Part shown: piece by piece, positions 19,242-51,012 of the stretch
Layout of the letters: every line of letters starts with the position of its first letter
How positions within the stretch are numbered: the first letter of the stretch is position 1
DNA from: a phage
Length of the DNA: 64,000 bases
Direction: 5' to 3' (one strand)
NCBI GenBank assembly: GCA_029742005.1
Contig: GCA_029742005.1_4113.1
Program-made: the position numbers and the translations under genes
The notes under the pieces: model-generated
Databases searched by the model: none
The model's input: only the letters and a program-made list of their open reading frames with translations
Told to the model about the DNA's origin: nothing

Positions 19242-19484
19242 ATGAAAGTACTGACAGAATTAGAAATGTATCATAGATTTAATAAGTACTATCATTTACT
19301 TAAACCTATACAGAGGATTAAGTGTCCCTTTGTAGTGAAACAGGTATTAATTTATGAGCATAAGTTATTTGTATCATTAGGTACGAATGAACAAGAGTAT
19401 TATTTGAAGTTGTACTTAATTACTTTAATTGAATTGATTAATTACAAAACTCAGAAAGCGAAGAAATCTAAAAATGAAAACTAA
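19242..19484 (+). CDS. fam1 small protein
   Basis: track frame 19224..19484; start moved to ATG 19242 behind RBS GGAG; motif SLGTNEQEYY. Confidence 0.6.
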   Translation: MKVLTELEMYHRFNKYYHLLKPIQRIKCPFVVKQVLIYEHKLFVSLGTNEQEYYLKLYLITLIELINYKTQKAKKSKNEN

Positions 19485-19815
19485 AATTCAACTCAGGGTA
19501 TACATATCGTATGAAAATATATACGTTAAAAGTAGTCTATGTAAAGATGTAATGGACTACAAAGGTAAACCATTCACAGTTACTTACAGTTTAACAGGAG
19601 GTTTATATATCTCTTTTGCTAATTACGAAAATAATATGTACGAACACATTGACATTGAAGATTTAAGTACTTTATCACCAGAGGAATACTTCCAGGAATC
19701 ATTAGTATGGGATTTAGAGTTCCCTATGCCATTAGTACATAAGATGATAGTACTAATGAAAGAATCTAAACAGGAGCCTAATAGTGCTTATGAAGAACAC
19801 ATTATTGAGTATTAA
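19474..19815 (+). CDS. fam2 protein (first member)
   Basis: ORF track; motif PEEYFQESLVWD. Confidence 0.6.
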   Translation: MKTKIQLRVYISYENIYVKSSLCKDVMDYKGKPFTVTYSLTGGLYISFANYENNMYEHIDIEDLSTLSPEEYFQESLVWDLEFPMPLVHKMIVLMKESKQEPNSAYEEHIIEY

Positions 19816-19827
19816 GAGTACTGATAT

Positions 19828-20043
19828 ATGAAAAGATTATCATACAAAGATTACAGTAAACTTATCAGTACTTTACAACCAGAAATTAGAAGAATTAATT
19901 ATCTTCCTATATCTAACGAAGAACGTGTAGTACTGAAAAATGAGTTAATCTTAAAACGCACAGTAGGTACTAACTATCAAGATAATAGTGTTCGCGATTT
20001 AATTAGAGGGTTAATGATCACAATAAAGGCCAAGTGCTATTGA
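19828..20043 (+). CDS. fam1 small protein
   Basis: ORF track; motif TVGTNYQDNS. Confidence 0.6.
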   Translation: MKRLSYKDYSKLISTLQPEIRRINYLPISNEERVVLKNELILKRTVGTNYQDNSVRDLIRGLMITIKAKCY

Positions 20044-20107
20044 CAGTACTTGACGGAGCTTTTCATTACTGATATAGTGCATCAACGTTAATCATAGGGT
20101 ACAGATT

Positions 20108-20353
20108 ATGTTAAAATTTTTAAATTTCCTTATCGTCTTGTGTATTGTTCTTGGAATTGCACCGTTTGTATTAGCGTATCTGGATTCAGATGAAATGCAG
20201 AAGATGAATTGCACAAAGACAGGACAGAGTAGAGAAGAGACGGTTATGATGCCTGTAACGGTTATTGTGAATAACATACCAATTACGAACATGATTCCTA
20301 CCCTAACGACAACGTACCAGTACTCTTGTGCTGACGGAGAGAGGTGGAGATGA
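20108..20353 (+). CDS. putative small membrane protein
   Basis: ORF track; hydrophobic N-terminal helix FLNFLIVLCIVLGIAPFVLAYL; promoter-like TTGACA about 60 nt upstream. Confidence 0.45.
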   Translation: MLKFLNFLIVLCIVLGIAPFVLAYLDSDEMQKMNCTKTGQSREETVMMPVTVIVNNIPITNMIPTLTTTYQYSCADGERWR

Positions 20354-20661
20354 AATTTAATATAGCAAAAACATCGAGTATATGTATTTTTGGTTATTCC
20401 TATGAATTGGGTGATATTGACATTCTATTGTACAAAACGAATGGTGTTATGCATTTCAAGTACCAGGATGAAGAGGCAGACAATTATCTTTTACCTAATT
20501 TAGTACAAATGCAGGAAGAGGAATTATTCCAGTACAGCTTAATATACGACATTGATATTTGCACGATGCCAGTATTAATTAGTATTCAAAAAGTGATGCT
20601 CGATATGTATGATAAGCTAATACAAGGTATGTCAGGGAGGATCATTGAAATCGATATATAA
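20350..20661 (+). CDS. fam2 protein
   Basis: track frame 20344..20661 (GTG); start moved to ATG 20350 behind RBS GGTGGAG; motif EEELFQYSLIYD. Confidence 0.6.
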   Translation: MKFNIAKTSSICIFGYSYELGDIDILLYKTNGVMHFKYQDEEADNYLLPNLVQMQEEELFQYSLIYDIDICTMPVLISIQKVMLDMYDKLIQGMSGRIIEIDI

Positions 20662-20857
20662 GAATTTACCTAATGAATATTTGTTGAAGTACAAAGAGTT
20701 TATTAAAGATGTATATGTAGATCCTTTTAATATCAAATTTGCAGAGTTCGAAGTATCATTTTATCTAGGGACAATAGTACAGGACCAATACGTTGATAAT
20801 CTAATAAGGTGTTTGAAAAAGGAGATACAATGCAGACCCAAATGTACAAAAAAATAA
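20645..20857 (+). CDS. fam1-like small protein (TTG start per track)
   Basis: ORF track with non-ATG start; motif YLGTIVQDQY. Confidence 0.45.
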   Translation: MKSIYKNLPNEYLLKYKEFIKDVYVDPFNIKFAEFEVSFYLGTIVQDQYVDNLIRCLKKEIQCRPKCTKK

Positions 20858-21093
20858 ACTGTTATTTGTATGCATCAAAGTACAGGGATTTTTGTTTACG
20901 AGGGGGAGAGGAAGATTTTGCTCTGAGATTATCGGAATTTAATATGTTATTTTATCTTGGTACATCAGTACAAGAAGAAATGGTACAGAAATTTATCAAT
21001 CACCTTGTACAAAAAATTAATATGCAAATTTTGATGCTTGAGTTACAGAATGAGATAAACAAATATGAACCCAACAATAGTACAGGATCTTAA
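20830..21093 (+). CDS. fam1-like small protein
   Basis: track frame 20809..21093; start moved to ATG 20830 behind RBS AAGGAGA; motif YLGTSVQEEM. Confidence 0.5.
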   Translation: MQTQMYKKINCYLYASKYRDFCLRGGEEDFALRLSEFNMLFYLGTSVQEEMVQKFINHLVQKINMQILMLELQNEINKYEPNNSTGS

Positions 21094-21454
21094 ACAAGTA
21101 ATATTCCTTTTGAATACAAGAAGTGAAATGTATACAGAGTTTAAAGAGATTAATGCATTTTATCAGAATTTTGTAATTCAAGAGTTCAGTGATTTAATTA
21201 CAGATGCATTATTTGAATTATCGGAAAAATACAAAGGAACAGAGTTCAGTGTTAAAAATGTATTACGTTCTTTATCAACGCGTATAATAAAATTAGATCA
21301 TTTCAAATTTGAAAATAAAGATTTATTCAGTCACAATCCAAGTACAGCTTTATATTTTATTCCTGATTCAGACAAAAATCATCCTATTCATTACGGATGG
21401 ATTTTGTCGTACATAGTACAAGGAAAGGAGTATCCTATTAAATGGAACGATTAG
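21065..21454 (+). CDS. hypothetical protein
   Basis: ORF track; no clear family motif. Confidence 0.5.
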   Translation: MNPTIVQDLKQVIFLLNTRSEMYTEFKEINAFYQNFVIQEFSDLITDALFELSEKYKGTEFSVKNVLRSLSTRIIKLDHFKFENKDLFSHNPSTALYFIPDSDKNHPIHYGWILSYIVQGKEYPIKWND

Positions 21455-21802: not shown

Positions 21803-22348
21803 ATGAATGAGATAGAATTATTAGCACACAAGATTAGTACAATAATGCTTATCCTAAATAACAACCATCCTATATCGCAGATAGATGGAATCCTGAGTCA
21901 GAGGACAGGTGGTAGTTTATATTTGACATTAACAGAGGTTATCGCAAGGAATTACATTGATATTGAAATCGAGAACAGTGATGCATCAGGAAAGGTTGAT
22001 GTAGGTGCATTAATCAGTTCAAATCCAGTATCAGCATCCCCATTGACCAAAGGTGTTAGTACAGGATTCGAAGGGTATTTGTGGTACAATACCAATGATG
22101 ATTATTTTATATATCAGCATTCCAATACAAATTATGATGAAGACAAATTTCAGTTCATAGACCCTTATGATGAAGCTGAAGTATTTCAAAAATCATTAAT
22201 CACAAAACCGCATGAGATGATGTATCTAATGTTATTCAGTACAATGCATTTGAATCCATTAATTAAAGGTTTAAAATTTTATATTCAATTGAAATTAGTC
22301 CATGTAGTTTATGATTTATTAATGCAAGGATATAGTTATGAAGTATAA
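21803..22348 (+). CDS. fam2 protein
   Basis: ORF track; motif EAEVFQKSLITK. Confidence 0.6.
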   Translation: MNEIELLAHKISTIMLILNNNHPISQIDGILSQRTGGSLYLTLTEVIARNYIDIEIENSDASGKVDVGALISSNPVSASPLTKGVSTGFEGYLWYNTNDDYFIYQHSNTNYDEDKFQFIDPYDEAEVFQKSLITKPHEMMYLMLFSTMHLNPLIKGLKFYIQLKLVHVVYDLLMQGYSYEV

Positions 22349-22655
22349 AATGCTTAATACAGTATCAGGGATATATGTAGAATTAGAATCCGATTATTCA
22401 GATGGATGGAATTTTATTAAACGACACGATAGAAATACATGGTACATGGCACATTTGGATAATGACGTAATAATAGATAATTTTGTCGATTTTAATACAT
22501 TATCAGAAGAAGAATTTTTCCAAATGCAATTTGTGCTTGATACAAATGGATTTGATTTGCTATTATTAAGGAATATTCAGAAAGCGGTTAATGAATTCAT
22601 AATCCAAAATAATTCAGGTAAAATGGGGATGTTCCATGATCTGGAAGTACAATGA
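22338..22655 (+). CDS. fam2 protein
   Basis: ORF track; motif EEEFFQMQFVLD. Confidence 0.6.
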   Translation: MKYKMLNTVSGIYVELESDYSDGWNFIKRHDRNTWYMAHLDNDVIIDNFVDFNTLSEEEFFQMQFVLDTNGFDLLLLRNIQKAVNEFIIQNNSGKMGMFHDLEVQ

Positions 22656-23193
22656 AATTCAGTACACCTACGCTAATGCAATCCTTATGGGACAAAAGTT
22701 AGCTTGTATTGTTGCAGCCTTATATAATGCACAGAAAGATTACAAGCGTCATATCCACAAATGTATTGGTATTATTCCATCGAAGTACAATACATATATT
22801 GCGTGCACGAGTCATTTTGATAAACGATTCAATACACCTGATACCCCAAATGCCAGTAGTGTTATTGGTCTTTTGGATTTCGCACCTGGTGCTGTTATTG
22901 GAAAGAATGATTTAGAGTACACATGGTATAATAAAAATGCCCCGTTAGTAATGGGAAAATATGATACAGAAACGAACAAAACAATAGAGTACAATACATA
23001 TAAATCAGAGGAAGAATTTTTCCAAGGTTCATTGCTTGTACCAGTGCGTTTGTTGTTTTATAATGTCCTTATTAGTACAGTACACAATAGTCCATTACAC
23101 AAGAATCACAAAATTAATTTCAATTTTTGTGCTTATGCGATTGATGGTGTGTATGAGTGTTTAATGGAGGTATTGAGTTATGAAGCTGAATAA
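22636..23193 (+). CDS. fam2 protein
   Basis: ORF track; RBS GGGGA; motif EEEFFQGSLLVP. Confidence 0.6.
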   Translation: MIWKYNEIQYTYANAILMGQKLACIVAALYNAQKDYKRHIHKCIGIIPSKYNTYIACTSHFDKRFNTPDTPNASSVIGLLDFAPGAVIGKNDLEYTWYNKNAPLVMGKYDTETNKTIEYNTYKSEEEFFQGSLLVPVRLLFYNVLISTVHNSPLHKNHKINFNFCAYAIDGVYECLMEVLSYEAE

Positions 23194-23521
23194 TACATTT
23201 GATATTAATAAGTTAAGAGAATGGTTTTATAGTATTGAAATTGAAGCCATCCCGTATCATAGATATGAACAATATAATTTAACCAGTATTGATATCCGTG
23301 AGTTGTACGCGTATTATCAAAGTGCATTAGAGATGCATAAGTTATTTTTGAGTACAGATTTTGTTATAAATTACAATTTTGAGGAATTTAATAATTATAA
23401 TTTAGTACAGAAATATGTAGTAGCAAAGTACATGTACCTTCAAGGAATTACAAGTAATTTGGAATTCAATACAGTCCTGGCTTTAGTTGAGGTAATTTTA
23501 TGCAGTACATGTATGATTTAG
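23180..23521 (+). CDS. hypothetical protein (possible divergent fam2)
   Basis: ORF track; motif not clear. Confidence 0.5.
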   Translation: MKLNNTFDINKLREWFYSIEIEAIPYHRYEQYNLTSIDIRELYAYYQSALEMHKLFLSTDFVINYNFEEFNNYNLVQKYVVAKYMYLQGITSNLEFNTVLALVEVILCSTCMI

Positions 23522-23895
23522 AGTTTAGTTTAGATGCTGCCTTTAAATTTGTTCACAAGATAGAAACAATATACAGTACATTATGTGCAATACAATCAGT
23601 ATCATCTGAGTTTGATGTTGGTGAAAAATATCAGGTATGGAATAATACATTTCTAAACAAAGAACGTTGCTCTACGGGGTTTAATATTTTAACATTTAAT
23701 CCCAGCAATTGTTACCCAGAGAAGCATGAACGTTATCCGAATGACGACATGTGGTTTGATTACACAAAAGATGGTGATATGTCATCCCTTGTAGTTCCTG
23801 ATGATTTTAATGCCGAAGATTTAACGGAAGAGTGGTGGTTTCAACAGAATTTAGTTCACGATGATATTGATTTATTTTTTTTATGTAGTATTTAA
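23500..23895 (+). CDS. fam2 protein
   Basis: ORF track; RBS GAGG; motif EEWWFQQNLVHDD. Confidence 0.6.
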   Translation: MQYMYDLEFSLDAAFKFVHKIETIYSTLCAIQSVSSEFDVGEKYQVWNNTFLNKERCSTGFNILTFNPSNCYPEKHERYPNDDMWFDYTKDGDMSSLVVPDDFNAEDLTEEWWFQQNLVHDDIDLFFLCSI

Positions 23896-24089
23896 AATGC
23901 TTTATCACAACAATATATTAAAAGATAGTGTGTTTTTTTCATGTCTATATATTGATGATTTGTACAATGAAATCCAAATCAACATTCCCAGCACGCCTGT
24001 ATCGTAAGATATGGGCTTTTTTCGTTTTGGTATTGACAAAGAAGTGCAAAGCTGTTATCATGTGTAATCATTTTAAAGGAGAACATATA

Positions 24090-24602
24090 GTGAGTTTCAT
24101 AATCCCAAGTACATACGAAGATGCATCAAGTGCAGTTCATAAGATTCATTATATTTTTAATTTAATTATTAGATCTGCAAAAATTAAAATGTATGCACCT
24201 CTTGTGGAATACGATAAAAATGAGGAAATTTTTGTTAGCACAGACCAAATTATTTTTCCATATTTCAATGAAGATAGATTGTGGTTCATGCATTTAGCTG
24301 CATTACAAAAATATAAAATGTCAATTCGTAATAATTTGGATATACCGTTATATCATCCTGATATTGGAGAGGATGAATATTTTCAGTACAGTACAGTACA
24401 CCGCCATGAAGATATCTTTGTTGCTATGCTTATTGCTAAATTGAATACCGTTGATTTGGAGCAGTACAAATACAATAATAAATCATGTAAGATCATAATC
24501 CCTGCATTCATAGCTCTTTATGATTATGTGGTGCATAACAAAAAAGATGATACATATGCTTTCAATGAAGAGTATTTGAATTTTTTTAAGGAGAACATAT
24601 GA
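24090..24602 (+). CDS. fam2 protein (GTG start)
   Basis: track ORF 23928..24602 runs through an internal TTGACA promoter; start placed at GTG 24090 behind RBS AAAGGAG; motif EDEYFQYSTVH. Confidence 0.5.
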   Translation: MSFIIPSTYEDASSAVHKIHYIFNLIIRSAKIKMYAPLVEYDKNEEIFVSTDQIIFPYFNEDRLWFMHLAALQKYKMSIRNNLDIPLYHPDIGEDEYFQYSTVHRHEDIFVAMLIAKLNTVDLEQYKYNNKSCKIIIPAFIALYDYVVHNKKDDTYAFNEEYLNFFKENI

Positions 24603-25126
24603 GCAGTGAAGTGCTGAAATCAATGACATTCAATGAAATTGGTGCATTTAAAGATAAGATCATTGATTGCATTGAATACATGATTTGTAGTAATATCGAA
24701 AGTATTGAGATATTTAACAAGACAAATCGCTCTTACCATATGATGTACATTGCAAACAATAATGGTATCATTCCATTTATTTCGGATAGTACAATATGGT
24801 ACGCATGTGATACGAAAAAAACCACAATAGGTTTACATTCATTTGAGACACATTATGATCTAATTATTCCTGAACATTGTATGCAAGAAGAAGAATATTT
24901 TCAAATGCAATGTATACATTCACCATTAGTGTTGTTTAGTTTATATATTATACCTTATATCACCAAATGTGTTCATGAGAATAAAGCTCCGTGGAATCAT
25001 GAATTTGTATCGTTGAAGTTATTGTATAATGTATTAGTAGAATATTATGATTACAGGCACAATGGTACAATCAGTGATGTATGGGATTTTGAATCGCTAA
25101 GGGTGAAAACATACACAGGTGAATGA
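24599..25126 (+). CDS. fam2 protein
   Basis: ORF track; ATGA overlap; motif EEEYFQMQCIH. Confidence 0.6.
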   Translation: MSSEVLKSMTFNEIGAFKDKIIDCIEYMICSNIESIEIFNKTNRSYHMMYIANNNGIIPFISDSTIWYACDTKKTTIGLHSFETHYDLIIPEHCMQEEEYFQMQCIHSPLVLFSLYIIPYITKCVHENKAPWNHEFVSLKLLYNVLVEYYDYRHNGTISDVWDFESLRVKTYTGE

Positions 25127-25127
25127 T

Positions 25128-25742
25128 ATGACCAGAATTAAAATGTATGATTTGATGCAGTACAGTAAAATTGCCATTCCAGTGCTTAATAAAGTGCTGG
25201 ATGCATTCATTGCCAAATACCCTGAGAATTCAGTGTTATGTATTCCATTTAGTGTTCCAGATAAAGATGATATATTCCAAGTGAATGTCAGTACACGTGG
25301 TATTACATTGCAGCAGAAATACATGGATACGGAATATTATGGAATAAAGTTGGATTCAGTACAGGGTTCAAAATCAGCCTATGATTTTTTTGTTCCTAAT
25401 AATATAGAGTCATGGGAAACAAACATTTCAAAGAAAGATGAAAATGATGTTCCTATTAGTGGTGTGTTCAACAATAAAGTTTTTTATTATTACGAAACCG
25501 ACAAATTCCCTGAAGAGTTATATTACAATTCAGAAATGATTGAAGATGTAGATGCATTCATGTTTCAATTATCGTTAGTACATGATATCATTGATGTTCA
25601 AGAGTTAAGAGCAGAAATCAATTTAGCTAAAGAGTTATCGGACATGCTGCCACCGTTTAGTATGCTTTTTTGTGAAGGAGGTTATTTTTCAAAAGAAGTG
25701 TTTGAACATTTCGTAGATGTTGTAAAAGGGTTGGATATATAG
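25128..25742 (+). CDS. fam2 protein
   Basis: track frame 25119..25742; start moved to ATG 25128 behind RBS AGGTGA; motif DAFMFQLSLVHD. Confidence 0.6.
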   Translation: MTRIKMYDLMQYSKIAIPVLNKVLDAFIAKYPENSVLCIPFSVPDKDDIFQVNVSTRGITLQQKYMDTEYYGIKLDSVQGSKSAYDFFVPNNIESWETNISKKDENDVPISGVFNNKVFYYYETDKFPEELYYNSEMIEDVDAFMFQLSLVHDIIDVQELRAEINLAKELSDMLPPFSMLFCEGGYFSKEVFEHFVDVVKGLDI

Positions 25743-25946: not shown

Positions 25947-26465
25947 ATGCATCAACACAAGCATCATTCATATGATTTTGCAATTAACATTATGAAGTTC
26001 ATTCGAGCGTTGGAGGATGGGAAGCTTAGTCATAAGTACACCAAAGTGGGTGACAATTGGTTCAGAAATGATGATGATGAGTTCAGAAGTCATAAGATTG
26101 TTTACAGCAATAATTACAGTGCCAATTACCTACAAGATGTAGTGATGTGTTTTGAATACGTGTTACAGTTCAGGGGTTCCATCAGTCCTGAGCTAAGAGA
26201 ACACATGTACATTCGATACCTACCAATGCTTAAGGATGAGAAATCAATATTCAATTCAGTACACCACAGAGTACGAGAGAGAACATTCAGAGATATTTTG
26301 GAAGATGAAGCTGCCTATTTTCAGCAATCATTGATTGATGCTCCTGATGTGTTACAGATGCAGAATTTGTATAATGTATTAGATGCGAACATCGATACGG
26401 ATATCTTTTTTTCCTTAAGTGATTATGAAACATTTTTGGAAGATTTAAAGGAAATAGGATTATGA
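25947..26465 (+). CDS. fam2 protein
   Basis: ORF track; RBS GAGGT; motif DEAAYFQQSLID. Confidence 0.6.
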   Translation: MHQHKHHSYDFAINIMKFIRALEDGKLSHKYTKVGDNWFRNDDDEFRSHKIVYSNNYSANYLQDVVMCFEYVLQFRGSISPELREHMYIRYLPMLKDEKSIFNSVHHRVRERTFRDILEDEAAYFQQSLIDAPDVLQMQNLYNVLDANIDTDIFFSLSDYETFLEDLKEIGL

Positions 26466-26806
26466 GTAGATTTTCAGTTTATATAGTAAACGTCAGTAAA
26501 GATGGTAGTTTAATTGAATTTGATGTAGTTGATAACAATGATAATTCATATGGTATTAAGGTACAGGACAATGATGTACAGTTCAGTACAAGGACAAATT
26601 TTGAGAATCCAGTCCAAGTTCCGAATTTCATAGAAGATGAAGCTGCACGATTCCAATACGAAACGGCCTTTGATAATTTAGCGATGCATATTATTATGCA
26701 AGAAAGTTTAGTTCAATTGCTTCAGGTATTCAGACAAAATATATATGTACATGAAGTGTCGATTAATGGCATTCAAAGTTCCGTTTTGTTCGGTACAAAT
26801 ATGTAA
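26462..26806 (+). CDS. fam2 protein
   Basis: ORF track; motif DEAARFQYETAFD. Confidence 0.55.
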   Translation: MSRFSVYIVNVSKDGSLIEFDVVDNNDNSYGIKVQDNDVQFSTRTNFENPVQVPNFIEDEAARFQYETAFDNLAMHIIMQESLVQLLQVFRQNIYVHEVSINGIQSSVLFGTNM

Positions 26807-26816
26807 GGAAAGTACA

Positions 26817-27371
26817 ATGAGTTCAATGAGTTTATTAGATACATTAGAAAAAGACAGAAGTGCCATTAAGAGATTAAAAAATCTTGTCCAGAGCATTGCG
26901 AACAACGCTGAGAAGTTCAGTGACAATCTTAGTATAGGTGATATAACCAGTACAGGAATAAAATCCCTGAAGTCAGATTTATTAATTCATAAGGAAGATA
27001 AATTATTATTTGTATTGAGTTCAGATTTAATGGTTGCAAGTAATGGTTTCAATTCGATATCAACACAAGATGGTAGCACAGGATTATATCTATCACAGGG
27101 TGTCCAGACGAACGAACAGAAGTGTTTTAGTTCAGGAGTACAGAATCCCTTTAAGTTCAGTACAGAACAAGCTACAGAGCTTTTAGAGGCTTCAGAAGAG
27201 ATGTTATTTCAGTACAAAACGGTTCATACAGATTTTGAATTACGATGCATGTACGCTGTTAAGCATTATGTTCAGGAGTTCGAGGATTTAAGTTATCTTT
27301 TAGTTCGAACGAATACAAAGAACATTGGTGCATTAGAAGATTACATTTCAAAAGTTGTTAAAGGTTGTTAA
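26817..27371 (+). CDS. fam2 protein
   Basis: track frame 26745..27371; start moved to ATG 26817 behind RBS AAGGAAAG; motif EEMLFQYKTVH. Confidence 0.6.
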   Translation: MSSMSLLDTLEKDRSAIKRLKNLVQSIANNAEKFSDNLSIGDITSTGIKSLKSDLLIHKEDKLLFVLSSDLMVASNGFNSISTQDGSTGLYLSQGVQTNEQKCFSSGVQNPFKFSTEQATELLEASEEMLFQYKTVHTDFELRCMYAVKHYVQEFEDLSYLLVRTNTKNIGALEDYISKVVKGC

Positions 27372-27949: not shown

Positions 27950-28147
27950 AGACGTTTCATTTTGACAGGCCGCAGGGGGGTCAAAAAAATTTCCGCTGAA
28001 AAACATGCTAAGGTATATGTTTAATATAAAGTTTTATATTGTGTTTTTCAGAGTACAGTTCATGTTTCCTGAAACAAAAAAAATACCCCGCCACCGAACG
28101 TGCTCCTTATATTGGAGTTTACCTTATTAATTATAGTAGAGATTAAG

Positions 28148-28525
28148 ATGGAAATAAAATATAATGAATTTTGTGCAAGGACATGGATGTACACTGGTGA
28201 GTTAGTTACGCACTCTAACTTATACAAGGGTGATTTAAACTACGCTAGGGACAAGATTTTAAAGTACTGGAATGCTGACTTTTATTTGATGGATTTTAGT
28301 ACTGGGTTTAGGGGTAAAGCAACCGAGATGTTGGACTATACAGTACTTGATGATGCTGCACTGTTTCAGGAGGCATTAGTATTTGATAAGAAGTACATCT
28401 GTACATTAGAAGAGATGATTGAATTACAGCGTAGAATTAAATGTATTCACAGGGAATGTATAGATATCTGGTGCAGTACTGGTGAAGTTGATTTTTGTAA
28501 TCATTTCAATCTAGGGGAAGTGTGA
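28148..28525 (+). CDS. fam2 protein (triplet copy 1)
   Basis: track frame 28100..28525; start moved to ATG 28148; motif DAALFQEALVFDKKYICTLEE. Confidence 0.6.
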   Translation: MEIKYNEFCARTWMYTGELVTHSNLYKGDLNYARDKILKYWNADFYLMDFSTGFRGKATEMLDYTVLDDAALFQEALVFDKKYICTLEEMIELQRRIKCIHRECIDIWCSTGEVDFCNHFNLGEV

Positions 28526-29237: not shown

Positions 29238-29246
29238 GATTATAAA

Positions 29247-29741: not shown

Positions 29742-29742
29742 A

Positions 29743-40140: not shown

Positions 40141-40145
40141 TGGCT

Positions 40146-41913: not shown

Positions 41914-42341
41914 TGACAAGAGATGATTGTTTGTACATATGGGATATAATTGAAACTACACTTTCAAATCCAGAAAATTATAAAACACAAAAAAGACAAC
42001 GACACAAAACATGGATAGATTTGTTCGTTGAGGACATACACGCAGTGACTATTTGGGATTCACCGAGGACATCAGCATCTACTCTGTTGGACAATGAATG
42101 CATTGATTGTATTAATTCCACTTTTCATCTCCACGGTACTACAATTTTTGGTACATTTCTGGATATTGAAAGTAAAGATGATATTGATTCACTTGCGTTA
42201 CAATACCAAGTACTGTATAATACTAAATTAATTTACGATTTAGTACTAGCTTCTTATGTGTATAAATTAATGATGAAATATAATCATATTTCTGTTTCAG
42301 TTTATACTAAGGATATTCTTTCATTAAGAGACAAAACATGA
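41913..42341 (+). CDS. hypothetical protein (possible divergent fam2)
   Basis: ORF track; TAATG overlap; LQYQVLY variant. Confidence 0.5.
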   Translation: MTRDDCLYIWDIIETTLSNPENYKTQKRQRHKTWIDLFVEDIHAVTIWDSPRTSASTLLDNECIDCINSTFHLHGTTIFGTFLDIESKDDIDSLALQYQVLYNTKLIYDLVLASYVYKLMMKYNHISVSVYTKDILSLRDKT

Positions 42342-42847
42342 GTTTATTAAATGCACGCGAATTGGTTGAGATGTATGAGATTTTGTCTTCATATAAAAAT
42401 TCTCATGGAGATGTGATTCTCGACAAAAAGTTCCATGTCAGTGTTGAAAATATATCAAATATAGATATGATTTCTTTGGTGGAAAGTAATAAGTCAGGTC
42501 TTGAACGCGATATCATGCGTTTGATTTATATTCCCAAACCATCATATACTAATGATAGTTCAATTAGTAATGAGACATTCATGTATAGTCCTGGTACGGA
42601 TTCTACTATAGTATCGCTGTCCAATAAATCAATGGGTACTTTCCAATTCATCTATACCAGTACTGATAACATTGAAGAAATTGAATTTCAAAACAATACA
42701 TTAAGTCCATGTAGTAGTGTTATAACCTTTATGTCATATCTATGGTCAACTAAAACAAGTGCTGTTGTATATAGTTCAAATTATACACAAGATAGTATTG
42801 TTGAATCATATAAAGTTCTAAAGGAATACTATGAAAATAACAAATGA
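42338..42847 (+). CDS. fam2-like protein
   Basis: ORF track; motif EEIEFQNNTLSP. Confidence 0.55.
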   Translation: MSLLNARELVEMYEILSSYKNSHGDVILDKKFHVSVENISNIDMISLVESNKSGLERDIMRLIYIPKPSYTNDSSISNETFMYSPGTDSTIVSLSNKSMGTFQFIYTSTDNIEEIEFQNNTLSPCSSVITFMSYLWSTKTSAVVYSSNYTQDSIVESYKVLKEYYENNK

Positions 42848-43412
42848 TTTTATTAAAAGTGTAGTACACCCTATGCTTAGTATTATGAAAAAAATACAGA
42901 ATCTACCGGAAGATAACGATTACAAGTTTAATCGTTTTGATTCAGATGTGTTTTGTATTGAAATTGAAATTAATAACAATCGCAATTTACATTTAAAATT
43001 CAAAGAATCGTCAAGTCCGTACTACAACTTTGATATGAATTTTAAAATAGATACTGACATTGAAGAAAACGTAATATCAAATCATACTAGCAAAAATGGT
43101 TTTATGCATAGAACTACTATGTACAATAATAAAAATAGTATTATATCTAAATGGAATCATCAATTCACTAAAATTTGTGAAATTGAATATAGTGATTTTG
43201 GTGAAGAGAATTACTTTCAGTTAAGTACAATTCATGAACTTCCACCGTATGATTATGTTAAAACATGGTTTGATATTCATAATATAATTGATGATGCAAT
43301 CAAACTTCCATTTGGTGTGTCAATATCATATACTGCTCCTAAAACATTTGTTTTTACTGAAGATATGATTATGAAAAAGATATGGGCAATTATCCCACTT
43401 ATGATGGATTAA
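42831..43412 (+). CDS. fam2 protein
   Basis: ORF track; RBS AAGGAA; motif EENYFQLSTIHE. Confidence 0.6.
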   Translation: MKITNDFIKSVVHPMLSIMKKIQNLPEDNDYKFNRFDSDVFCIEIEINNNRNLHLKFKESSSPYYNFDMNFKIDTDIEENVISNHTSKNGFMHRTTMYNNKNSIISKWNHQFTKICEIEYSDFGEENYFQLSTIHELPPYDYVKTWFDIHNIIDDAIKLPFGVSISYTAPKTFVFTEDMIMKKIWAIIPLMMD

Positions 43413-43417
43413 ATTCG

Positions 43418-43445
43418 TACCAGGGGTTGACTCTGGTATTTTTGT
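43418..43445 (+). terminator. rho-independent terminator
   Basis: TACCAG..CTGGTA stem (loop GGGTTGACT) then T5. Confidence 0.65.
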
Positions 43446-43473
43446 ATGATACATTGTCCTAAAGGAGAATTTT

Positions 43474-44025
43474 ATGAACTACAATCATGATCTTTTTACA
43501 TTATGTGCATCCAAATGTGTTGATGGATGGACAGATAAAATCAATACCATAATTCATCGATATCTGGTCTTTAGTTCTCGTGCACGAAGTGAGGGGGCTA
43601 TGGATTTCAAATATACACTATCTATTGATGGTGTAACTATCCATGCAGACGAAGAACGTCTGAGCATTAATTTGTATGATTCCTGTGTATTTGCTATTCA
43701 CCAAAAGATGGGGAAAGGATGGGGTTGTAATAACATTAACTCAAAAGCTATCTTTTGGGTTGGTCACCACCAGACAGTACTTGATCCTTCAATCAAATCT
43801 AATCTTTTATCCGATAATATGGTTTATGATTTATTGTACTCCGAAGAACAACATTTTCAGTTAAGTACATTACATGATCTGGCACAGTACGAGGATTGTT
43901 ACAAAACATTAGAACTATGCCATTCCCTTGAACTTAAAGATAAATTGATACAAGTTTACCCTTCATTCTTTCATGAAGAAGTACAAAGTACACTAGATCA
44001 TATTTTATATGGATACGATAAATGA
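43474..44025 (+). CDS. fam2 protein
   Basis: ORF track; RBS AAAGGAG; motif EEQHFQLSTLHD. Confidence 0.65.
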   Translation: MNYNHDLFTLCASKCVDGWTDKINTIIHRYLVFSSRARSEGAMDFKYTLSIDGVTIHADEERLSINLYDSCVFAIHQKMGKGWGCNNINSKAIFWVGHHQTVLDPSIKSNLLSDNMVYDLLYSEEQHFQLSTLHDLAQYEDCYKTLELCHSLELKDKLIQVYPSFFHEEVQSTLDHILYGYDK

Positions 44026-44624
44026 GAAAAAGTTATCAAGAAGCTATTGACTTAATTCGTGAAGTTATCAAGGTGGCTCCTGCTGCTATTGAGTTCAAGA
44101 AGTCCATATACAAGAAGTATGGTTCAATGTCGAGTATGTGCTTTCAAAAGAAACGTAGAGCATTCACTACCCAGTACTGGAATGATTCTATCATCCTGAG
44201 CAATGAGACTCAGCGTATTTTAACACTAGAATCTGAACCTAATGAGTACGGGGAAGGGAACATTTGTGTACCTGATTATGATGAAATTAACTTCAACTGC
44301 GGTGATTTTGAAACAACATTATTACTTCATGAGGGTTATCCAGAAGGTGATGTATTAGCTGAGTACAATCCAAAAACTAAAATTCTCAAAAGAGGAATCC
44401 AGTTCACTATTAATAACAAAGATGATGTTCAAGCAGCACTGATGCAACTGAGTACAAGTGAACCTATCACTATTAGTGTAGAAGAGTTATGGGGAATTAT
44501 TTCAGTACTCAATGAGTGCTATAAAGTAAAATCATTGCGTAAACACAGCATTATATTACATACCAATATGGCAAATATAAAATGTAAGCACATTCAAGAA
44601 ATGGTGGTTCCAGATGGACTTTAA
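44022..44624 (+). CDS. fam2-like protein
   Basis: ORF track; variant motif AALMQLSTSEP. Confidence 0.55.
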   Translation: MRKSYQEAIDLIREVIKVAPAAIEFKKSIYKKYGSMSSMCFQKKRRAFTTQYWNDSIILSNETQRILTLESEPNEYGEGNICVPDYDEINFNCGDFETTLLLHEGYPEGDVLAEYNPKTKILKRGIQFTINNKDDVQAALMQLSTSEPITISVEELWGIISVLNECYKVKSLRKHSIILHTNMANIKCKHIQEMVVPDGL

Positions 44625-45198
44625 AGAAATTGAAAGTAAATTAAAGTACTTCAAAGATATCAAACTTCTTTGGGAAAAGTATAAAGTTGATTACAATTTC
44701 AGTGATGATGACACTGTAAAAACAATTGAGATTAATATCAAAATCAAGTTCAAGAATAATAATTATGGTGAAGTAACCTTAAATCATACTGGTATATCAC
44801 TCAAGGACTATGATGGTTCAACACTCGCATATTTTGACTTCACACCAGAACCAGGTGAAACACTACTTAGTGAGATAAATTCCTATGACATGGAAGTGTT
44901 CGGCGGGAATCCGTTACTGTTCCGACTTTCTGAAGATTGGAGTGAAGAATACTACACTTACAAAGATGGTGTAGTACTTGACATTAATGGTGAAGTTGTG
45001 AATGACTTGGAAGAACGCTTGTTCCAAGAATTGTGTGTTTCAAATACTTCATATGCATACAATCATATCCTTGACATGTTTGATTTATATAGTAAAATAG
45101 ATGCTGAAATGAATGCACATGGTATTCATTATCTTACAATCAACGACTATGCTCAACTTGAAACTGTAGTGAAAGCATTGACTAAAGTACTGAAATAG
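44614..45198 (+). CDS. fam2-like protein
   Basis: ORF track; motif EERLFQELCVSN. Confidence 0.55.
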   Translation: MDFKEIESKLKYFKDIKLLWEKYKVDYNFSDDDTVKTIEINIKIKFKNNNYGEVTLNHTGISLKDYDGSTLAYFDFTPEPGETLLSEINSYDMEVFGGNPLLFRLSEDWSEEYYTYKDGVVLDINGEVVNDLEERLFQELCVSNTSYAYNHILDMFDLYSKIDAEMNAHGIHYLTINDYAQLETVVKALTKVLK

Positions 45199-45207: not shown

Positions 45208-45621
45208 ATGAAACTGTATCATGCGAGTACTGTAAAAATTGATAACTTTTATATCCCGTATGGTGGTCTTCATATGGGAGGTAAACACAGTGCTTTGGAA
45301 GCTGCATTACGCAAGCTCAGAAGTCCACTGAACGTAGTAGACGCATGTACAGTATACTTGCATACCTTAGAAGTTGATGTTGATAACGTGCTTCTGTGTG
45401 AAGATTTAGGTAGTGATGATGAGTGGCGTTCACTTATTGAGAATTGCACTGCTCAAGGTTATGATGCTGTTCAGTACAAAAATGATTACGAGCCAGACAA
45501 TGTTCCTAGTTTTATGATTTGGGATGCATCTAAAGTTCGCATCATTGAAGTTGATGCTATGCATATGGATGAAGCTGAAATGATTATCGAAGATTTTCTT
45601 GATGAATATGAAGGTGTATAA
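45208..45621 (+). CDS. hypothetical protein (non-family, acidic C-terminus)
   Basis: ORF track; RBS AGGAA; no family motif. Confidence 0.6.
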   Translation: MKLYHASTVKIDNFYIPYGGLHMGGKHSALEAALRKLRSPLNVVDACTVYLHTLEVDVDNVLLCEDLGSDDEWRSLIENCTAQGYDAVQYKNDYEPDNVPSFMIWDASKVRIIEVDAMHMDEAEMIIEDFLDEYEGV

Positions 45622-46139
45622 TGATTGAACCTATGACAGTACTAGCACGTACTAAATTATTATTGAGGATTGGTGAGATATTCACTGATATTTTGTACAG
45701 TGGGATTGATATACTTGAATTAGGCATTAAGCAACCGTGGGAATTAACCAAGTTCTCTGCGTTCCATCGTTTATCCTATAAAGGGGAAACGGTTCTTGAC
45801 TTGAACCCCAAAGCCAGATTCATGGACTATGCAGCTTTATATGGAACATGTGGAGGAATAACAAATGATTTCAAAGAAATTAAAGTTCAAACAGCGTCAC
45901 ATGAATTTAATGATTTATTATATCCAGAATTTAAGTTAACAGAAGAATCATTCTTCCAGTACTCATTGATTTTAAAAGATCTTAATGATTTAGAGTACTA
46001 CAAAGAGTTAGTAGATATTTTTATTAATACACGACTTTCAAAAGATATTGTGATATTCTGGTATACAGAGCATGTTACGGAGGAATTGCTTACTGAATTT
46101 CTTCTAAATATGACAGCTATAAAGGAGAAGTTATGTTAG
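45621..46139 (+). CDS. fam2 protein
   Basis: ORF track; motif EESFFQYSLILKD. Confidence 0.6.
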   Translation: MIEPMTVLARTKLLLRIGEIFTDILYSGIDILELGIKQPWELTKFSAFHRLSYKGETVLDLNPKARFMDYAALYGTCGGITNDFKEIKVQTASHEFNDLLYPEFKLTEESFFQYSLILKDLNDLEYYKELVDIFINTRLSKDIVIFWYTEHVTEELLTEFLLNMTAIKEKLC

Positions 46140-46606
46140 ATATTTTAGGAAACATCGACACTGCAAATTATTTTATTCAAGATGCATTGTTTAATACAGT
46201 ACAACAAGGTTTAGAAGTTCACCACAATGTTTATCAGGGTGATGGATATTTTGTTGATATTATCGAGACACGTAAAAATACATTTAATGTTAACATTACG
46301 ACGCTTGGAAGACAGAACATTGCACGAATTTTAGTAAGTAAAGATGAAATAGTACTGAGATACAGTGCTAAGTTTATGTTGACTTATAAGAAAAAAACTG
46401 ATATGTTCAGTACTAATTTATTTGATGAGCCATTTGACCTTGAAGATATTGAAGCTACTTTCTTTACTCAAAGTACTATGGTAAAATACACTGATGTTCA
46501 ATTTTCTGCTGATGTAATGTCAGAAACATTACAAATGATCAAGGTATTATTTTATGCATTTGAGCAATTTAGAGAAGAAAGAAACAAGGTTAACAACCAC
46601 AGATGA
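46133..46606 (+). CDS. fam2-like protein
   Basis: ORF track; RBS AGGAGAAG; variant motif EATFFTQSTMV. Confidence 0.55.
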   Translation: MLDILGNIDTANYFIQDALFNTVQQGLEVHHNVYQGDGYFVDIIETRKNTFNVNITTLGRQNIARILVSKDEIVLRYSAKFMLTYKKKTDMFSTNLFDEPFDLEDIEATFFTQSTMVKYTDVQFSADVMSETLQMIKVLFYAFEQFREERNKVNNHR

Positions 46607-46967
46607 ACTAATAGAGGCGATCACTAAGGAGTCAAAATACCATAAAGGTATTCGTCTATACTTTATAGATACTGGTTCGATGGAAGGTACATACATTTAT
46701 GGTTCACAATCGTTGTCTTATGATGCAATGCCAAATAAACATGTTAAAATCTTTTTAGGTTCAAGTAATAAAACTTTCTTGACAATTAATGATAGCAGTG
46801 TTATTATGAATTCGTTGGGTCATGATAAGGTGGAAATTGATCTAAACACGCTGGAGGATATTGATTTTTTTCAATACGAGTGTTTAGGTGTTGACTTACA
46901 TGGCATTAGTAGCGATATGATAAAATCATTAATCAAATATTTCGAAGGTGTTCATAAATGTATCTAA
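46554..46967 (+). CDS. fam2-like protein (start uncertain)
   Basis: ORF track; 52-nt overlap with upstream gene; motif EDIDFFQYECLG. Confidence 0.45.
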   Translation: MHLSNLEKKETRLTTTDELIEAITKESKYHKGIRLYFIDTGSMEGTYIYGSQSLSYDAMPNKHVKIFLGSSNKTFLTINDSSVIMNSLGHDKVEIDLNTLEDIDFFQYECLGVDLHGISSDMIKSLIKYFEGVHKCI

Positions 46968-47455
46968 CTAAATCAATGAAAAATTCATTTGATAAAATCA
47001 AGAGTTGTCTTGATGGAGAAAATATTACAAGTGTTACACAAACTGCTGACCAAATTCAAAGCAGTTCAAGTGATTGCACTGTTATTTTTGGTTTACATAG
47101 TCTGCGTTTATCAATAGTAAATAATATTGACAACACTGCTATTGTAATCACACCATGCAATATTCAAAATGAGAATGGTGTATATCTTCATCACATGGGA
47201 ACAGTATTTCACATTTTCAATTCAAACGAAAACATTGTTAAGGAATACAATACTCTTAATATTGATTCAGGTGAATTATTTCAAATGAGTACTTTGTACT
47301 CATGTAATTTTACAGATACTTCATGTATTTTGCCATTTTTCTTGGAAATTATTAAGAAAATGGAAAATTTAAAACGTGAATACAATAAAGAAATGGTTCC
47401 TGAAGCTATATTAAATATTACTAATGCTATAGAGAAGTATAATGCAGTGACTTAA
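46958..47455 (+). CDS. fam2 protein
   Basis: ORF track; motif SGELFQMSTLYS. Confidence 0.6.
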   Translation: MYLTKSMKNSFDKIKSCLDGENITSVTQTADQIQSSSSDCTVIFGLHSLRLSIVNNIDNTAIVITPCNIQNENGVYLHHMGTVFHIFNSNENIVKEYNTLNIDSGELFQMSTLYSCNFTDTSCILPFFLEIIKKMENLKREYNKEMVPEAILNITNAIEKYNAVT

Positions 47456-47973: not shown

Positions 47974-48105
47974 ATGGCTAAGAAAGTAAACAATTTCGTA
48001 CAGAAACACATGAATGAGTTTAACAAGCCTCAGACACATGTGGATCGTAAAAAAGAAATGAAAAATGGTAAAGTAAAACACAAGTCGAGATTTATTCTCG
48101 ACTAA
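47974..48105 (+). CDS. small basic protein (43 aa)
   Basis: hand-called; RBS GGAG; Lys-rich MAKKVNNFVQKH.. Confidence 0.4.
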   Translation: MAKKVNNFVQKHMNEFNKPQTHVDRKKEMKNGKVKHKSRFILD

Positions 48106-49293: not shown

Positions 49294-49301
49294 TGAAAAT
49301 A

Positions 49302-49348
49302 ATGTGAACATATTAGATTCTTGTGATATAATGTTCACATCTTTTTTT
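49302..49348 (+). terminator. terminator-like 10-bp perfect inverted repeat overlapping a TGATATAAT box
   Basis: ATGTGAACAT 49302-49311 and ATGTTCACAT 49331-49340 flank TTGTGATATAAT; followed by CTTTTTTT. Confidence 0.5.
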
Positions 49349-49364
49349 GATAACGGAGATATAG

Positions 49365-49751
49365 ATGAATACAAGTTCAGTCCTAAAAGCAATTGGTGGT
49401 GTTTTACTCATTGAAGTAAAAGGTGAGCCAAAGCTATGCTGTTTAGAAGATATGAAGAATACAAAACACTTCAGTACTGGTCAGATTTTCAATGCCATTC
49501 GTATTCTAAATGACAAATCCATTGCTGATTATGGAAAAGTTTGGCCTGTATATCAAAATGCTGATGGTGATATCAGTACTGATTGGAAAACAATTGAGGC
49601 GGTACGACAAAGTTGTGAGAGTGATTGGGACTTCATTGTTGAAGTTTGTGATCAACTACAAGAAGATGTTCCAGAAATTGTTGAACGAAAAGAAGTTCTA
49701 GCACGACTTGAAAAATTCCGTCACGGAACACTACAGTATGACACAATCTAA
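49365..49751 (+). CDS. hypothetical protein
   Basis: ORF track; RBS GGAGA. Confidence 0.6.
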   Translation: MNTSSVLKAIGGVLLIEVKGEPKLCCLEDMKNTKHFSTGQIFNAIRILNDKSIADYGKVWPVYQNADGDISTDWKTIEAVRQSCESDWDFIVEVCDQLQEDVPEIVERKEVLARLEKFRHGTLQYDTI

Positions 49752-49800
49752 TCTGCTTATTAAAAATATCTAATTAACATTATATAAAAGGAATTTAAAA

Positions 49801-50106
49801 ATGGAAGACAATGGAATGAAATTTGATATGTTTGAAGGTGTACCAGAGTTCGATTTCAACAAACTTGAAGAAGGTGAGGAATCAGAACTAGTTAGTGTTA
49901 CACTTAAAGCAGATTCTAAAAAGAAATATTCATCATCAGTACGTTCACGTTCACAAGAAGAATACGAATCATTTATTGAAAGTATTCATTATGAAACATT
50001 CCATCACGCAGATGGAACTCCATATGAAGTACGTGTAACAGTACTGAAGCCTGAAGTAAATCCAATGGAAAATCTACGTCCTGTTTACTGCTGGGCAAGT
50101 CACTAA
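49801..50106 (+). CDS. hypothetical protein (acidic)
   Basis: ORF track; RBS AAGGAA. Confidence 0.6.
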   Translation: MEDNGMKFDMFEGVPEFDFNKLEEGEESELVSVTLKADSKKKYSSSVRSRSQEEYESFIESIHYETFHHADGTPYEVRVTVLKPEVNPMENLRPVYCWASH

Positions 50107-50114
50107 TAAACCAA

Positions 50115-50147
50115 AGGACGGGATTTGTTATCTCGTCCTTTTTTTGT
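50115..50147 (+). terminator. rho-independent terminator
   Basis: AGGACG..CGTCCT hairpin then T7. Confidence 0.7.
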
Positions 50148-50157
50148 CTGGAGATGT

Positions 50158-51012
50158 ATGAAACTTTATCTAATCGTTGACTACAATAAGGATTATGCTG
50201 GTAACTTCACCGAAGATTCGGATGGATATTGCACATCGACTAATGTCAATGTACGTAGCAGTAGTGCTCATGAACATGAATCTTGTAAAAATCTAAAAGA
50301 TTTTATCGCATACCGAGCATTTGAAAAGAACTTCTGCCGCAGTAGATATTCGAAGTTTGAGTACCCGTTAATTGATGTTCCTGATGATTTAATGTTCCAG
50401 TTAATGCTGACTGGAGTTCAAGATTATGATTACATAGCGTATAATCATATTACTAAGAAAATTTATATTGGTACATCATCACATGACACTTCTATGTATG
50501 CATCATGCCCAGATGATCGAATGAATGATAGAAAATCATACTATAGTGGGTCAGTTGGTTTAAATGATTCATTAAATAAAAATTCATTCTTTGAGTATGT
50601 TTATGATTACCATCATGAGAAAAAAGAACGTGAAGATTACTGTATAGCAATTGATAGTACTAATGGTTATGAAGACGTGAAAGAAGCACTTATGCCGTAC
50701 ATTATTGAAAAGTACTACAAAGATTTTCAGTACTGTAGTAATTTTCTAATCAGAAATTCTATTATAATCGGTCGCCAATCTAGTGCATACTCTCAGTACT
50801 ATAATGATTCACCAGTAGCATCGGCAAATGAAATGTGTGATATTTTACAAATTCCACGTGAAGATATGGCATTCATTTTTACATCTTTTATTGAAGATGA
50901 TGAGTTGTATATTAAAAATAAACACCGTTTCATGCCAAGCAAGATTGAGGTTATTCGAAGTTTTAGTGTTGATATACTAACAAATTTCACAGAAAAAACC
51001 GAATATAACTGA
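50158..51012 (+). CDS. hypothetical protein (284 aa, fam2-like motif)
   Basis: track ORF 50125..51012 starts in the terminator; start moved to ATG 50158 behind RBS GGAG; motif DDLMFQLMLTG. Confidence 0.6.
   Translation: MKLYLIVDYNKDYAGNFTEDSDGYCTSTNVNVRSSSAHEHESCKNLKDFIAYRAFEKNFCRSRYSKFEYPLIDVPDDLMFQLMLTGVQDYDYIAYNHITKKIYIGTSSHDTSMYASCPDDRMNDRKSYYSGSVGLNDSLNKNSFFEYVYDYHHEKKEREDYCIAIDSTNGYEDVKEALMPYIIEKYYKDFQYCSNFLIRNSIIIGRQSSAYSQYYNDSPVASANEMCDILQIPREDMAFIFTSFIEDDELYIKNKHRFMPSKIEVIRSFSVDILTNFTEKTEYN

Follow-up and report, generated by a model that had tools for sequence, protein, structure and literature searches.

A tandem array of small proteins with an invariant Phe-Gln motif beside the terminal repeat of a Rak2-like jumbo phage

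Multigene families of eukaryotic viruses include MGF360/505/110 of African swine fever virus, the ankyrin/PRANC and kelch families of poxviruses, and m145/RL11 of cytomegalovirus. In bacteriophages, small genes for early host takeover are clustered in the hyperplastic regions of T4, with their "monkey-wrench" early genes, and in the SPO1 module located in the terminal redundancy, while the internal proteins of T4 are highly polymorphic, share only a short peptide, and include at least one member that counters a host defence. Lineage-specific expansions in jumbo phages are already a known kind of feature; ~10% of RaK2 proteins are paralogues (PMC3622015), and the ~35 copies of the Zn-ribbon family in Bacillus phage G were called "unprecedented" (Iyer et al. 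2021; PMC7824862). Here, we analyze a 64,000-nucleotide stretch of phage DNA (GenBank assembly GCA_029742005.1, contig GCA_029742005.1_4113.1; hereafter, the window) that carries 42 to ~50 copies of a gene family which we call FQ, the name being used for paralogues with an invariant Phe-Gln motif. All copies are on the plus strand, in 19.5-47.5 kb of the window and at 59113. It is well supported that they form one single, ancient, heavily expanded paralogue family and that this family is specific to Rak2-like jumbo myoviruses. As for its role, we favor, with a probability of about 0.5, a set of host-interaction proteins that is old and expanded, is expressed early, is not part of the virion, and shares one scaffold.

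The Zn-ribbons of phage G resemble the FQ family in being a lineage-specific expansion of one small protein family in a jumbo phage, and they were proposed to be diversified regulators or binders, with predicted DNA binding (PMC7824862). However, that expansion is found in one phage of a Gram-positive host, whereas the FQ family extends over several genera with 42-50 copies. The folds also differ, being a Cys-rich Zn-ribbon in phage G and a predicted sheet with two helices, devoid of Cys ligands, in the FQ proteins; the four Cys/His zinc ligands of the ribbon were sought in the FQ alignment and are not present. The original prediction, made on this DNA from its letters, had considered an array of this size exceptional for a phage, in line with the wording chosen for the ~35-copy family of phage G (PMC7824862), and had likened it to the multigene families of large eukaryotic viruses, a comparison that holds as an analogy, with no homology claimed. 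Those families are also tandem arrays near a terminus made of strongly diverged paralogues around a short motif, with local duplication, a copy number that varies between relatives and, by analogy, a role in host range or immune evasion that the FQ family might share. In the window, 42 diverged members lie close to a repeat end at ~13.47 kb, and both copy number (42, 31, 28, and 6 in the genomes compared) and alleles (55-100% identity) vary between relatives. The takeover clusters of T4 and SPO1 show a similar layout, with many small genes of unknown function on a single strand, host-type promoters, a position at or next to the terminal repeat, products that virions lack, and high variability between relatives. 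Nonetheless, these clusters consist of unrelated genes, whereas in the FQ array one family supplies 40 or more.

According to megablast, the window belongs to a Rak2-like jumbo myovirus of the coliphage genus Asteriusvirus, in agreement with the phage source assumed in the original prediction. It shares 98.5% identity with Escherichia phage 121Q over 28-36 kb, and 98.7% with CRJP21 over 58-63 kb; the matching entries (36 of 50,697 phage records) are all Escherichia or Salmonella phages of 310-386 kb. In this class of genomes (~350 kb), the FQ array covers ~28 kb, and 40 to 50 versions of one protein take up ~6% of the genome, a large investment. GenBank annotation across the region reads "hypothetical protein" throughout, in every record examined. 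Neither tRNA genes nor Rfam RNAs were found across the window.

The pattern FQ.S[LTFCVMI] occurs 36 times in plus-strand open reading frames (ORFs) of the window and 0 times in minus-strand ORFs, against ~1 match expected from amino-acid composition and a mean of 0.9 (maximum 5) in 500 within-ORF shuffles. In the array members, the motif occupies one alignment column at 0.50-0.76 of the protein length, which upholds both the tandem paralogue array with a shared motif and the positional homology of that motif. An iterated hidden Markov model (HMM) of the C-terminal 60-90 aa, run on all six-frame ORFs, settles on 40 plus-strand ORFs, all between 19474 and 47455, and matches 0 of the 149 minus-strand ORFs, picking up in addition variants outside the seed pattern such as FQEAL, FQMQC, and FQYKT. 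A joint HMM, built from the window and Klebsiella phage Muenster, recognizes 42 window members, adding 26462-26806 and 59113-59802. Moreover, the window-only HMM detects 28 members in Muenster, on which it was not trained, at E<1e-3, and therefore the family signal is not an artefact of self-training.

These results give 42 solid members and ~9 divergent or borderline ones; the 45 clean and 8 divergent copies first proposed were thus close, with a clean count slightly too high. Also, the claim that the family fills ~30 kb stands as to the array, but scattered through the same stretch there are also five second-family genes and ~ten small genes without relation to either. The members measure 104-229 aa, matching the ~100 to 230 aa predicted. 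Their head-to-tail arrangement on one strand with ATGA junctions was likewise borne out: 13.5-51.1 kb comprises 99 genes at 99% coding density, with 69 of the 98 junctions overlapping and 21 of those being of the ATGA type. Of three outliers named beyond the array, the one at 59113 is accepted by the joint HMM (E<1e-3) and the one at 58538 is only borderline (HMM E 0.0012), whereas the one at 50158 had to be discarded, because its ORF (50125-51012) has no HMM match, carries the motif at ~0.29 of its length, and is the orthologue of a different conserved protein of 285 aa.

The original prediction did not recognize the family, and database searches found no characterized family either. Pfam gave 0 consistent matches for 40 members, NCBIfam no family match and just two isolated sub-threshold hits, and the Protein Data Bank (PDB) no sequence match. 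In PHROGs, the 40 members are spread over 28 groups, all of unknown function (13866, 12674, 9317, 15629, 34017, and 23 others). These bins hold the same proteins but are not joined there and come with no motif, structure, or function, so that one profile and one motif now unite 28 separate PHROGs for annotators. Just 82 clusters emerged when 1.84 billion representative proteins were searched exhaustively with the profile. Word-indexed searches gave 34 and 9 matches, the named ones being from Escherichia or its phages with one exception, a member on a 563-nt contig labelled Actinomadura adrarensis, which is probably phage or E. coli contamination of that assembly. In the papers examined on Asteriusvirus, RaK2, CBB, and jumbo phages in general, no description of the FQ family was found, nor one of its motif, predicted fold, size, or distribution.

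A logo of 73 members from two genera reads [ST]-[ED](86%)-[ED](78%)-x-[YLF]-F(100%)-Q(100%)-x-S(79%)-[TL](87%)-[VIL](85%)-[YHF]-[DN]. The F and the Q are also invariant in 6/6 members of Cronobacter phage GAP32 and in a multi-genus alignment, and both are kept in ~45 metagenomic relatives that are <50% identical to any fetched member. By contrast, mean column identity of the alignments is just 9-14%, no conserved Cys or His column and no conserved polar residue outside the motif were found in them, and F and Q are their sole invariant residues.

Structures were predicted with AlphaFold for two members, both models resting on shallow paralogue alignments. The model of the 150-aa member 31119-31571 (predicted local distance difference test [pLDDT] 88.4, predicted template modelling score [pTM] 0.84) begins with an N-terminal helix, continues with seven strands and two helices, and closes with a final strand, the FQ motif being in the first of the two late helices. 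The 120-aa member 34683-35045, of the short class (pLDDT 76.6, pTM 0.71), would share this core but lack the N-terminal helix. Both models show the motif as a helix packed on the sheet. This suggests a shared scaffold, predicted to consist of an antiparallel beta-sheet of 5-7 strands, two C-terminal helices covering it, and a final strand that rejoins the sheet, to which the long-class members would add an N-terminal helix; the signature [ST]-[ED]-[ED]-x-[YLF]-F-Q-x-S-[TL]-[VIL] is predicted to start the first covering helix. The MAM33/p32 fold (N-terminal helix, seven antiparallel strands, and two C-terminal helices; Pfam PF02330) was compared with this arrangement. Fold searches with the two models gave no convincing match in the PDB, and Foldseek against viral models returned uncharacterized proteins only, from 121Q, SP27, RaK2, GAP32, and Serratia phage BF.

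That the FQ proteins are small, acidic, and soluble is well supported. Their median isoelectric point (pI) is 4.8 and their median net charge -9.5, and no genuine transmembrane or hydrophobic segment was found in them. With pI <5.5 in 34 of the 42 members and a genomic context suggestive of early expression, the proteins could be thought of as acidic nucleic-acid mimics, comparable to Ocr or Arn, with every decoy fitted to another DNA-binding enzyme of the host (a restriction system, a nuclease, or a nucleoid protein, for example). We regard this as unlikely, considering that acidity is common among phage early proteins, that four FQ members are basic, and that there is no structural match to any known DNA mimic; moreover, it would be a special case of the favored host-interaction set and not a true alternative to it.

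The FQ family is not confined to this one phage. The window, 121Q, and SP27 have 42 members each, while the syntenic region has 31 in Muenster (with ~38 ORFs carrying the motif), 28 in coliphage EJP2, and 6 plus 2 borderline ones in GAP32. At least four Rak2-like phage lineages, with hosts in Escherichia, Salmonella, Klebsiella, and Cronobacter, have thus kept the family. The array is stable within Asteriusvirus, with reciprocal best hits for 41/42 members in 121Q and 40/42 in SP27. In Muenster, only 5/42 members have reciprocal best hits, at 22-30% identity, against a median of 47% for the 26 neighboring non-family proteins that have them. The family therefore evolves fast, in an arms-race-like manner. 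Most paralogues are about as distant from each other as from the Muenster members, which indicates that the expansion is old, although the clusters 28100-29237 and 29247-31571 are recent tandem duplications. Also, between genomes that are ~98% identical overall, identity per member ranges from 55 to 100%, and this suggests allelic replacement by recombination.

The pooled ratio of nonsynonymous to synonymous substitution rates (dN/dS, or omega) of the FQ genes is 0.31-0.33, with none >1, compared with 0.21-0.23 in neighboring genes, and hence every copy is a genuine gene under purifying selection. Constraint is strongest in the motif segment (omega 0.18-0.22, vs 0.32-0.35 in the N-terminal part). 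The high copy number, one truncated copy (23500-23895), and the lack of an assignable function might recall functionless duplication debris or persisting selfish DNA. However, this explanation is already refuted at the level of selection by the dN/dS values, the intact ORFs, and the 1:1 orthologues of 40-41/42 members; in addition, the family is retained in four genera or clades and the region combines 99% coding density with coupled junctions. We therefore hold it to be extremely improbable.

The array has a defined place in the genome. The left direct terminal repeat (~21 kb) ends at about 13.47 kb of the window, in the gap 13331-13561, according to the alignment to phage fEgEco12, with which window homology breaks between fEgEco12 positions 20889 and 21079; the termini of fEgEco12 were confirmed by experiment (PMC13070987). 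The repeat end coincides with the gap ahead of the first gene of a second array, called "LGTNYQE," and the FQ array starts ~6 kb past the repeat, directly after this 30-gene second-family array. In Muenster, the syntenic array likewise follows a predicted 20-kb repeat (PhageTerm). Inside the repeat, 188-12633 contains 18 plus-strand elements of ~74 nt, one per small gene and none on the minus strand, each made of a near-consensus sigma70 promoter (GTACTTGCAA or TTGACA, N17, GTATAAT, GTTTTACAT) followed by a GC-rich hairpin (GGGGAGAAATGGTTCTCCCC). These are probably the immediate-early promoters of the repeat region. A separate 93-nt element is present in four copies (4270-4362, 7277-7369, 10581-10673, and 11985-12077), in which a terminator-like hairpin (GGGATTGACTCCGGTCAGTCCC, then TTTGCT) and a TTGACT-N17-TATTAT promoter overlap, which gives it the look of a joint stop-and-restart signal.

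Within the arrays, promoters are rare but not randomly positioned: 9 of the 31 strong sigma70-like matches lie between genes, although intergenic sequence makes up just 4.3% of the array region (P = 4e-6), and several of these nine come directly after terminator hairpins. On the plus strand, sigma70-like promoters are predicted at 20050-20078 (intergenic; TTGACG-17-TATAGT with TG), at 24033-24061 (11/12; TTGACA-17-TATCAT with TG), directly after a terminator-like hairpin at 23995-24016 (9-bp stem, then TTTTTT), at 27962-27990 in the gap 27950-28147 (consensus match), at 36273-36302 in the gap 36277-36335 (a perfect 12/12 consensus match plus TG), and at 40145-40173 (consensus match), after the intrinsic-terminator-like hairpin 40112-40131. 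Further hairpins of this type are located at 43417-43439 (plus strand, in the gap 43413-43473) and, past the array end, at 48083-48103 (scored on both strands). The sequence thus gives good support to FQ genes organized as translationally coupled polycistronic units with putative sigma70-like promoters and intrinsic terminators as their boundaries, a layout that resembles early or delayed-early units read by the host polymerase.

The position of the array after the terminal repeat, the 18 plus-strand promoters of the repeat, and the enrichment of promoter-like matches between genes suggest early expression. Moreover, none of the 62 proteins in the virion proteome of phage phAPEC6 lies between gp347 and gp549, an interval that includes the FQ orthologues checked, gp434c-gp442c, so that the family is not a detectable virion component. 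This bears on two other explanations. In the first, the FQ proteins would be packaged or structural, either injected inner-body or internal proteins or components of the capsid or tail "hairs." Variable proteins with one short conserved motif do recall the capsid-targeting sequence of the T4 internal proteins. However, the T4 motif is N-terminal and is cleaved as a packaging signal, whereas the FQ motif is internal and predicted to be helical. Rak2-like phages do possess an inner body and hair-like fibers (PMC7247149). The packaged proteins were rejected on the phAPEC6 proteome and are very unlikely.

In the second explanation, the motif would be a protease-processing signal, akin to the sites of tobacco etch virus (TEV) or 3C-type proteases, E-x-x-Y-x-Q-(S/G), with the cut after the Gln. 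Taking the Q as P1, P6 is acidic in 86% and P3 is Y, L, or F, and one member even contains TEEGYFQGS. Nevertheless, P1' is Y in 31%, L in 19%, E in 10%, and M in 6%, the conserved Ser being at P2'; the segment is predicted as helical and packed instead of extended; no 3C-like protease was found within the window, to which that search was directed; and the T4-type prohead protease of Rak2-like phages presumably cleaves after Glu. Because of the P1' residue, the predicted helix, and the lack of the proteins in virions, we rejected a TEV-like cleavage site and give it hardly any credence.

On the favored reading of a host-interaction set, the host RNA polymerase would transcribe the FQ genes early in infection, and their products would act in the cytoplasm as a repertoire of non-enzymatic binders. 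An acidic pI, the absence of a transmembrane segment, the lack of Pfam, NCBIfam, or PDB matches, and the lack of conserved polar residues outside the motif are the grounds for proposing binders. The conserved helix motif would keep the scaffold together, whereas the fast-evolving sheet and N-terminal parts may direct every paralogue to a separate host target (a defence system or a part of the host machinery, for instance). Such a repertoire would have grown via tandem duplication and divergence, would be reshuffled among related phages by allelic replacement, and might serve as a toolkit for host takeover, anti-defence, or host range. If this is true, no larger set of the kind would be known in a phage, new inhibitors of bacterial proteins and defence systems could readily be drawn from it, and some of the "dark matter" (83% unknown genes) in these candidate phages for therapy would be accounted for.

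Several observations weigh against this reading. The evidence for promoters consists of consensus matches only, and in total promoter-like matches are no more numerous than in shuffled sequence. The literature search found no expression, interaction, or phenotype data for any member in any phage. Also, dN/dS gives no positive selection on any FQ gene, and because of this the "arms race" view rests on turnover and mosaicism and not on site-wise tests. Finally, the invariant Gln and the conserved acidic residues exceed the needs of a pure scaffold, and they could mark a site for a shared ligand or partner.

This last point leads to the main rival of the favored reading, an adaptor repertoire, in which the E-E-x-x-F-Q-x-S helix would dock one common partner (a host protease, RNA polymerase, the ribosome, or a phage factor) and the variable sheet would recruit different host proteins. 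Poxvirus substrate-adaptor multigene families, with variable repeats and a conserved F-box-like tail, would work alike. The option stays open because the Gln is invariant and the acidic pair conserved: across four phage lineages at 9-14% mean identity, F and Q are retained in 100% and the acidic residues at -4/-3 in 86%/78%, the motif codons show the lowest omega, and the remainder of the protein is highly variable. However, both models place the motif as a helix packed on the sheet, and [ST]-E-E also reads as an ordinary helix N-cap and the F as a core anchor, so that a structural role may explain most of the motif. We thus consider the adaptors a tentative possibility of rather low probability. 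More doubtful still is a fully modular version, in which the invariant helix would dock all paralogues to one cellular or phage machine, each hypervariable sheet would capture a different host protein, and the fold would be one absent from the PDB. If true, it would amount to a programmable system for neutralizing or disposing of dozens of host factors, anti-phage defences included, and to the bacterial-virus counterpart of a eukaryotic-virus multigene family.

The individual members, all on the plus strand, are given below with their HMM E values in parentheses. The array opens with two short-class genes, 19474-19815 (113 aa, motif PEEYFQESL; 5e-12) and 20344-20661 (105 aa; 4e-13), followed by 21803-22348 (181 aa; 1.5e-16), the short-class gene 22338-22655 (105 aa, motif EEEFFQMQF; 1e-10), whose SP27 orthologue has an amino-acid identity of only 55%, and 22636-23193 (185 aa; 4e-16). 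The next, 23500-23895 (131 aa; 4e-8), stops 20 residues past the motif and is probably a truncated allele, the homologous gene 353 of 121Q having 507 nt. For 23928-24602 (3e-11), the true start is probably downstream of the promoter 24033-24061; the corresponding gene 354 of 121Q has 501 nt. Then come 24599-25126 (175 aa; 6e-17), 25119-25742 (207 aa; 1.3e-10), and 25947-26465 (172 aa; 8e-11), a divergent allele with 76-80% identity to 121Q and SP27. The short-class gene 26462-26806 (114 aa, motif DEAARFQYET; joint HMM E<1e-3) precedes a second divergent allele, 26745-27371 (2e-15), which probably starts at ~26817 and has orthologues 60-62% identical.

A recent cluster of three short-class tandem genes comprises 28100-28525 (start ~28148, neighbor 42% identical; 7e-14), 28522-28881 (3e-13), and 28878-29237 (9e-13). 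It is followed by a recent five-gene tandem cluster with the signature SEEYYFQ...WYFK...FY[LF]D, formed by 29247-29741 (6e-18), which is 56% identical to 30653, 29743-30213 (6e-15), 30210-30650 (5e-15), 30653-31141 (1.4e-16), and the modelled gene 31119-31571 (1.6e-18). Further on are the short-class gene 31568-31882 (104 aa; 3e-8), 32187-32636 (149 aa, motif TEEGYFQGST; 3e-14), 32633-33169 (178 aa; 1.3e-10), with a syntenic orthologue at 18618 in Muenster, 33524-34084 (186 aa; 2e-15), the second modelled gene, 34683-35045 (7e-14), 34969-35412 (start probably 35035; 5.5e-13), the short-class gene 35391-35732 (113 aa; 4e-10), and 35692-36276 (start probably 35740; 1.2e-15).

The first gene after the 12/12 promoter is 36336-36812 (158 aa; 7e-17), and 36809-37303 (164 aa; 1.2e-16), the short-class gene 37269-37631 (120 aa; 9e-16), 37615-38028 (137 aa; 1.3e-15), and 38016-38519 (167 aa; 1e-14), 64% identical to its SP27 orthologue, continue the series. 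The remaining members of the contiguous array are 39042-39605 (187 aa, orthologue Muenster 27913; 2e-14), 39550-40113 (187 aa; 2e-13), 40764-41348 (194 aa; 9e-12), 41335-41913 (192 aa; 4e-14), 42831-43412 (193 aa; 1.4e-13), 43474-44025 (183 aa; 5e-9), 45621-46139 (172 aa, orthologue Muenster 34593; 2.4e-11), and, as the last, 46958-47455 (165 aa, orthologue Muenster 36048; 1.6e-11). Outside the array lies 59113-59802 (229 aa, motif SEEEHFQLMM; accepted by the joint HMM at the threshold given above).

Among the divergent copies, also on the plus strand, 38503-39045 has a degenerate motif, DMERIKFSLS, and belongs to the family by transitivity (phmmer E 8e-8 to the HMM member Muenster 29053-29637). 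Borderline members are 58538-59116 (motif LPEHFQISTLYD), 44614-45198 (LEERLFQELC; 0.011), 40189-40767 (0.048), 46554-46967 (EDIDFFQYEC, NEIDFFQYTC in its orthologue Muenster 35597; 0.12), 41913-42341 (0.23), and 42338-42847, whose motif IEEIEFQNNT corresponds to YEELEFQYST in the orthologue Muenster 31333 (E 1.3e-8). Two others are doubtful, namely 44022-44624 (0.55) and 46133-46606, with ATFFTQST. The latter gene is strongly conserved across genera, with orthologues at Muenster 35158 (E 3e-33) and GAP32 30004 (E 3e-25), the GAP32 protein having an FQ HMM E of 0.059.

The second family, "LGTNYQE," consists of 30-31 basic proteins of ~75 aa (median pI 8.8), encoded in 13562-21093, from the first gene after the terminal repeat onwards, and at 33147-33365 and 33343-33534. 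A single superfamily uniting it with the FQ proteins was rejected, the hhalign probability being 0.1% and no better than that of a reversed control. Its turnover is faster than that of the FQ family, with reciprocal best hits in 121Q for 24/31 members at a median identity of 80%, and there are 12 copies in Muenster and none in GAP32 or EJP2. A third small family has eight proteins of 91-103 aa in 54522-58530 (genes at 54522, 55050, 55372, 55646, 56376, 56808, 57902, and 58228) and corresponds to PHROG 21004, of unknown function.

The non-family genes embedded in the FQ array gave nothing useful against Pfam and PHROGs. One of them, 45208-45621 (137 aa), has a Muenster orthologue annotated as "putative ADP-ribosyl transferase" (HHpred note), a label for which Pfam, PHROGs, and PDB sequence searches provided no support. 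In the terminal-repeat region, among the strongly promoted genes, 9941-10582 encodes a protein of 213 aa with weak, sub-threshold matches to protein-kinase Pfam families, its Muenster counterpart being annotated as a putative protein kinase. Downstream of the arrays, 60063-63234 contains genes for an RnlA-type RNA ligase and a polynucleotide kinase/phosphatase, which we take to be the tRNA-repair pair deployed by T4 against PrrC, an anticodon nuclease, and a GIY-YIG-like ORF (63221-63961) follows this pair.

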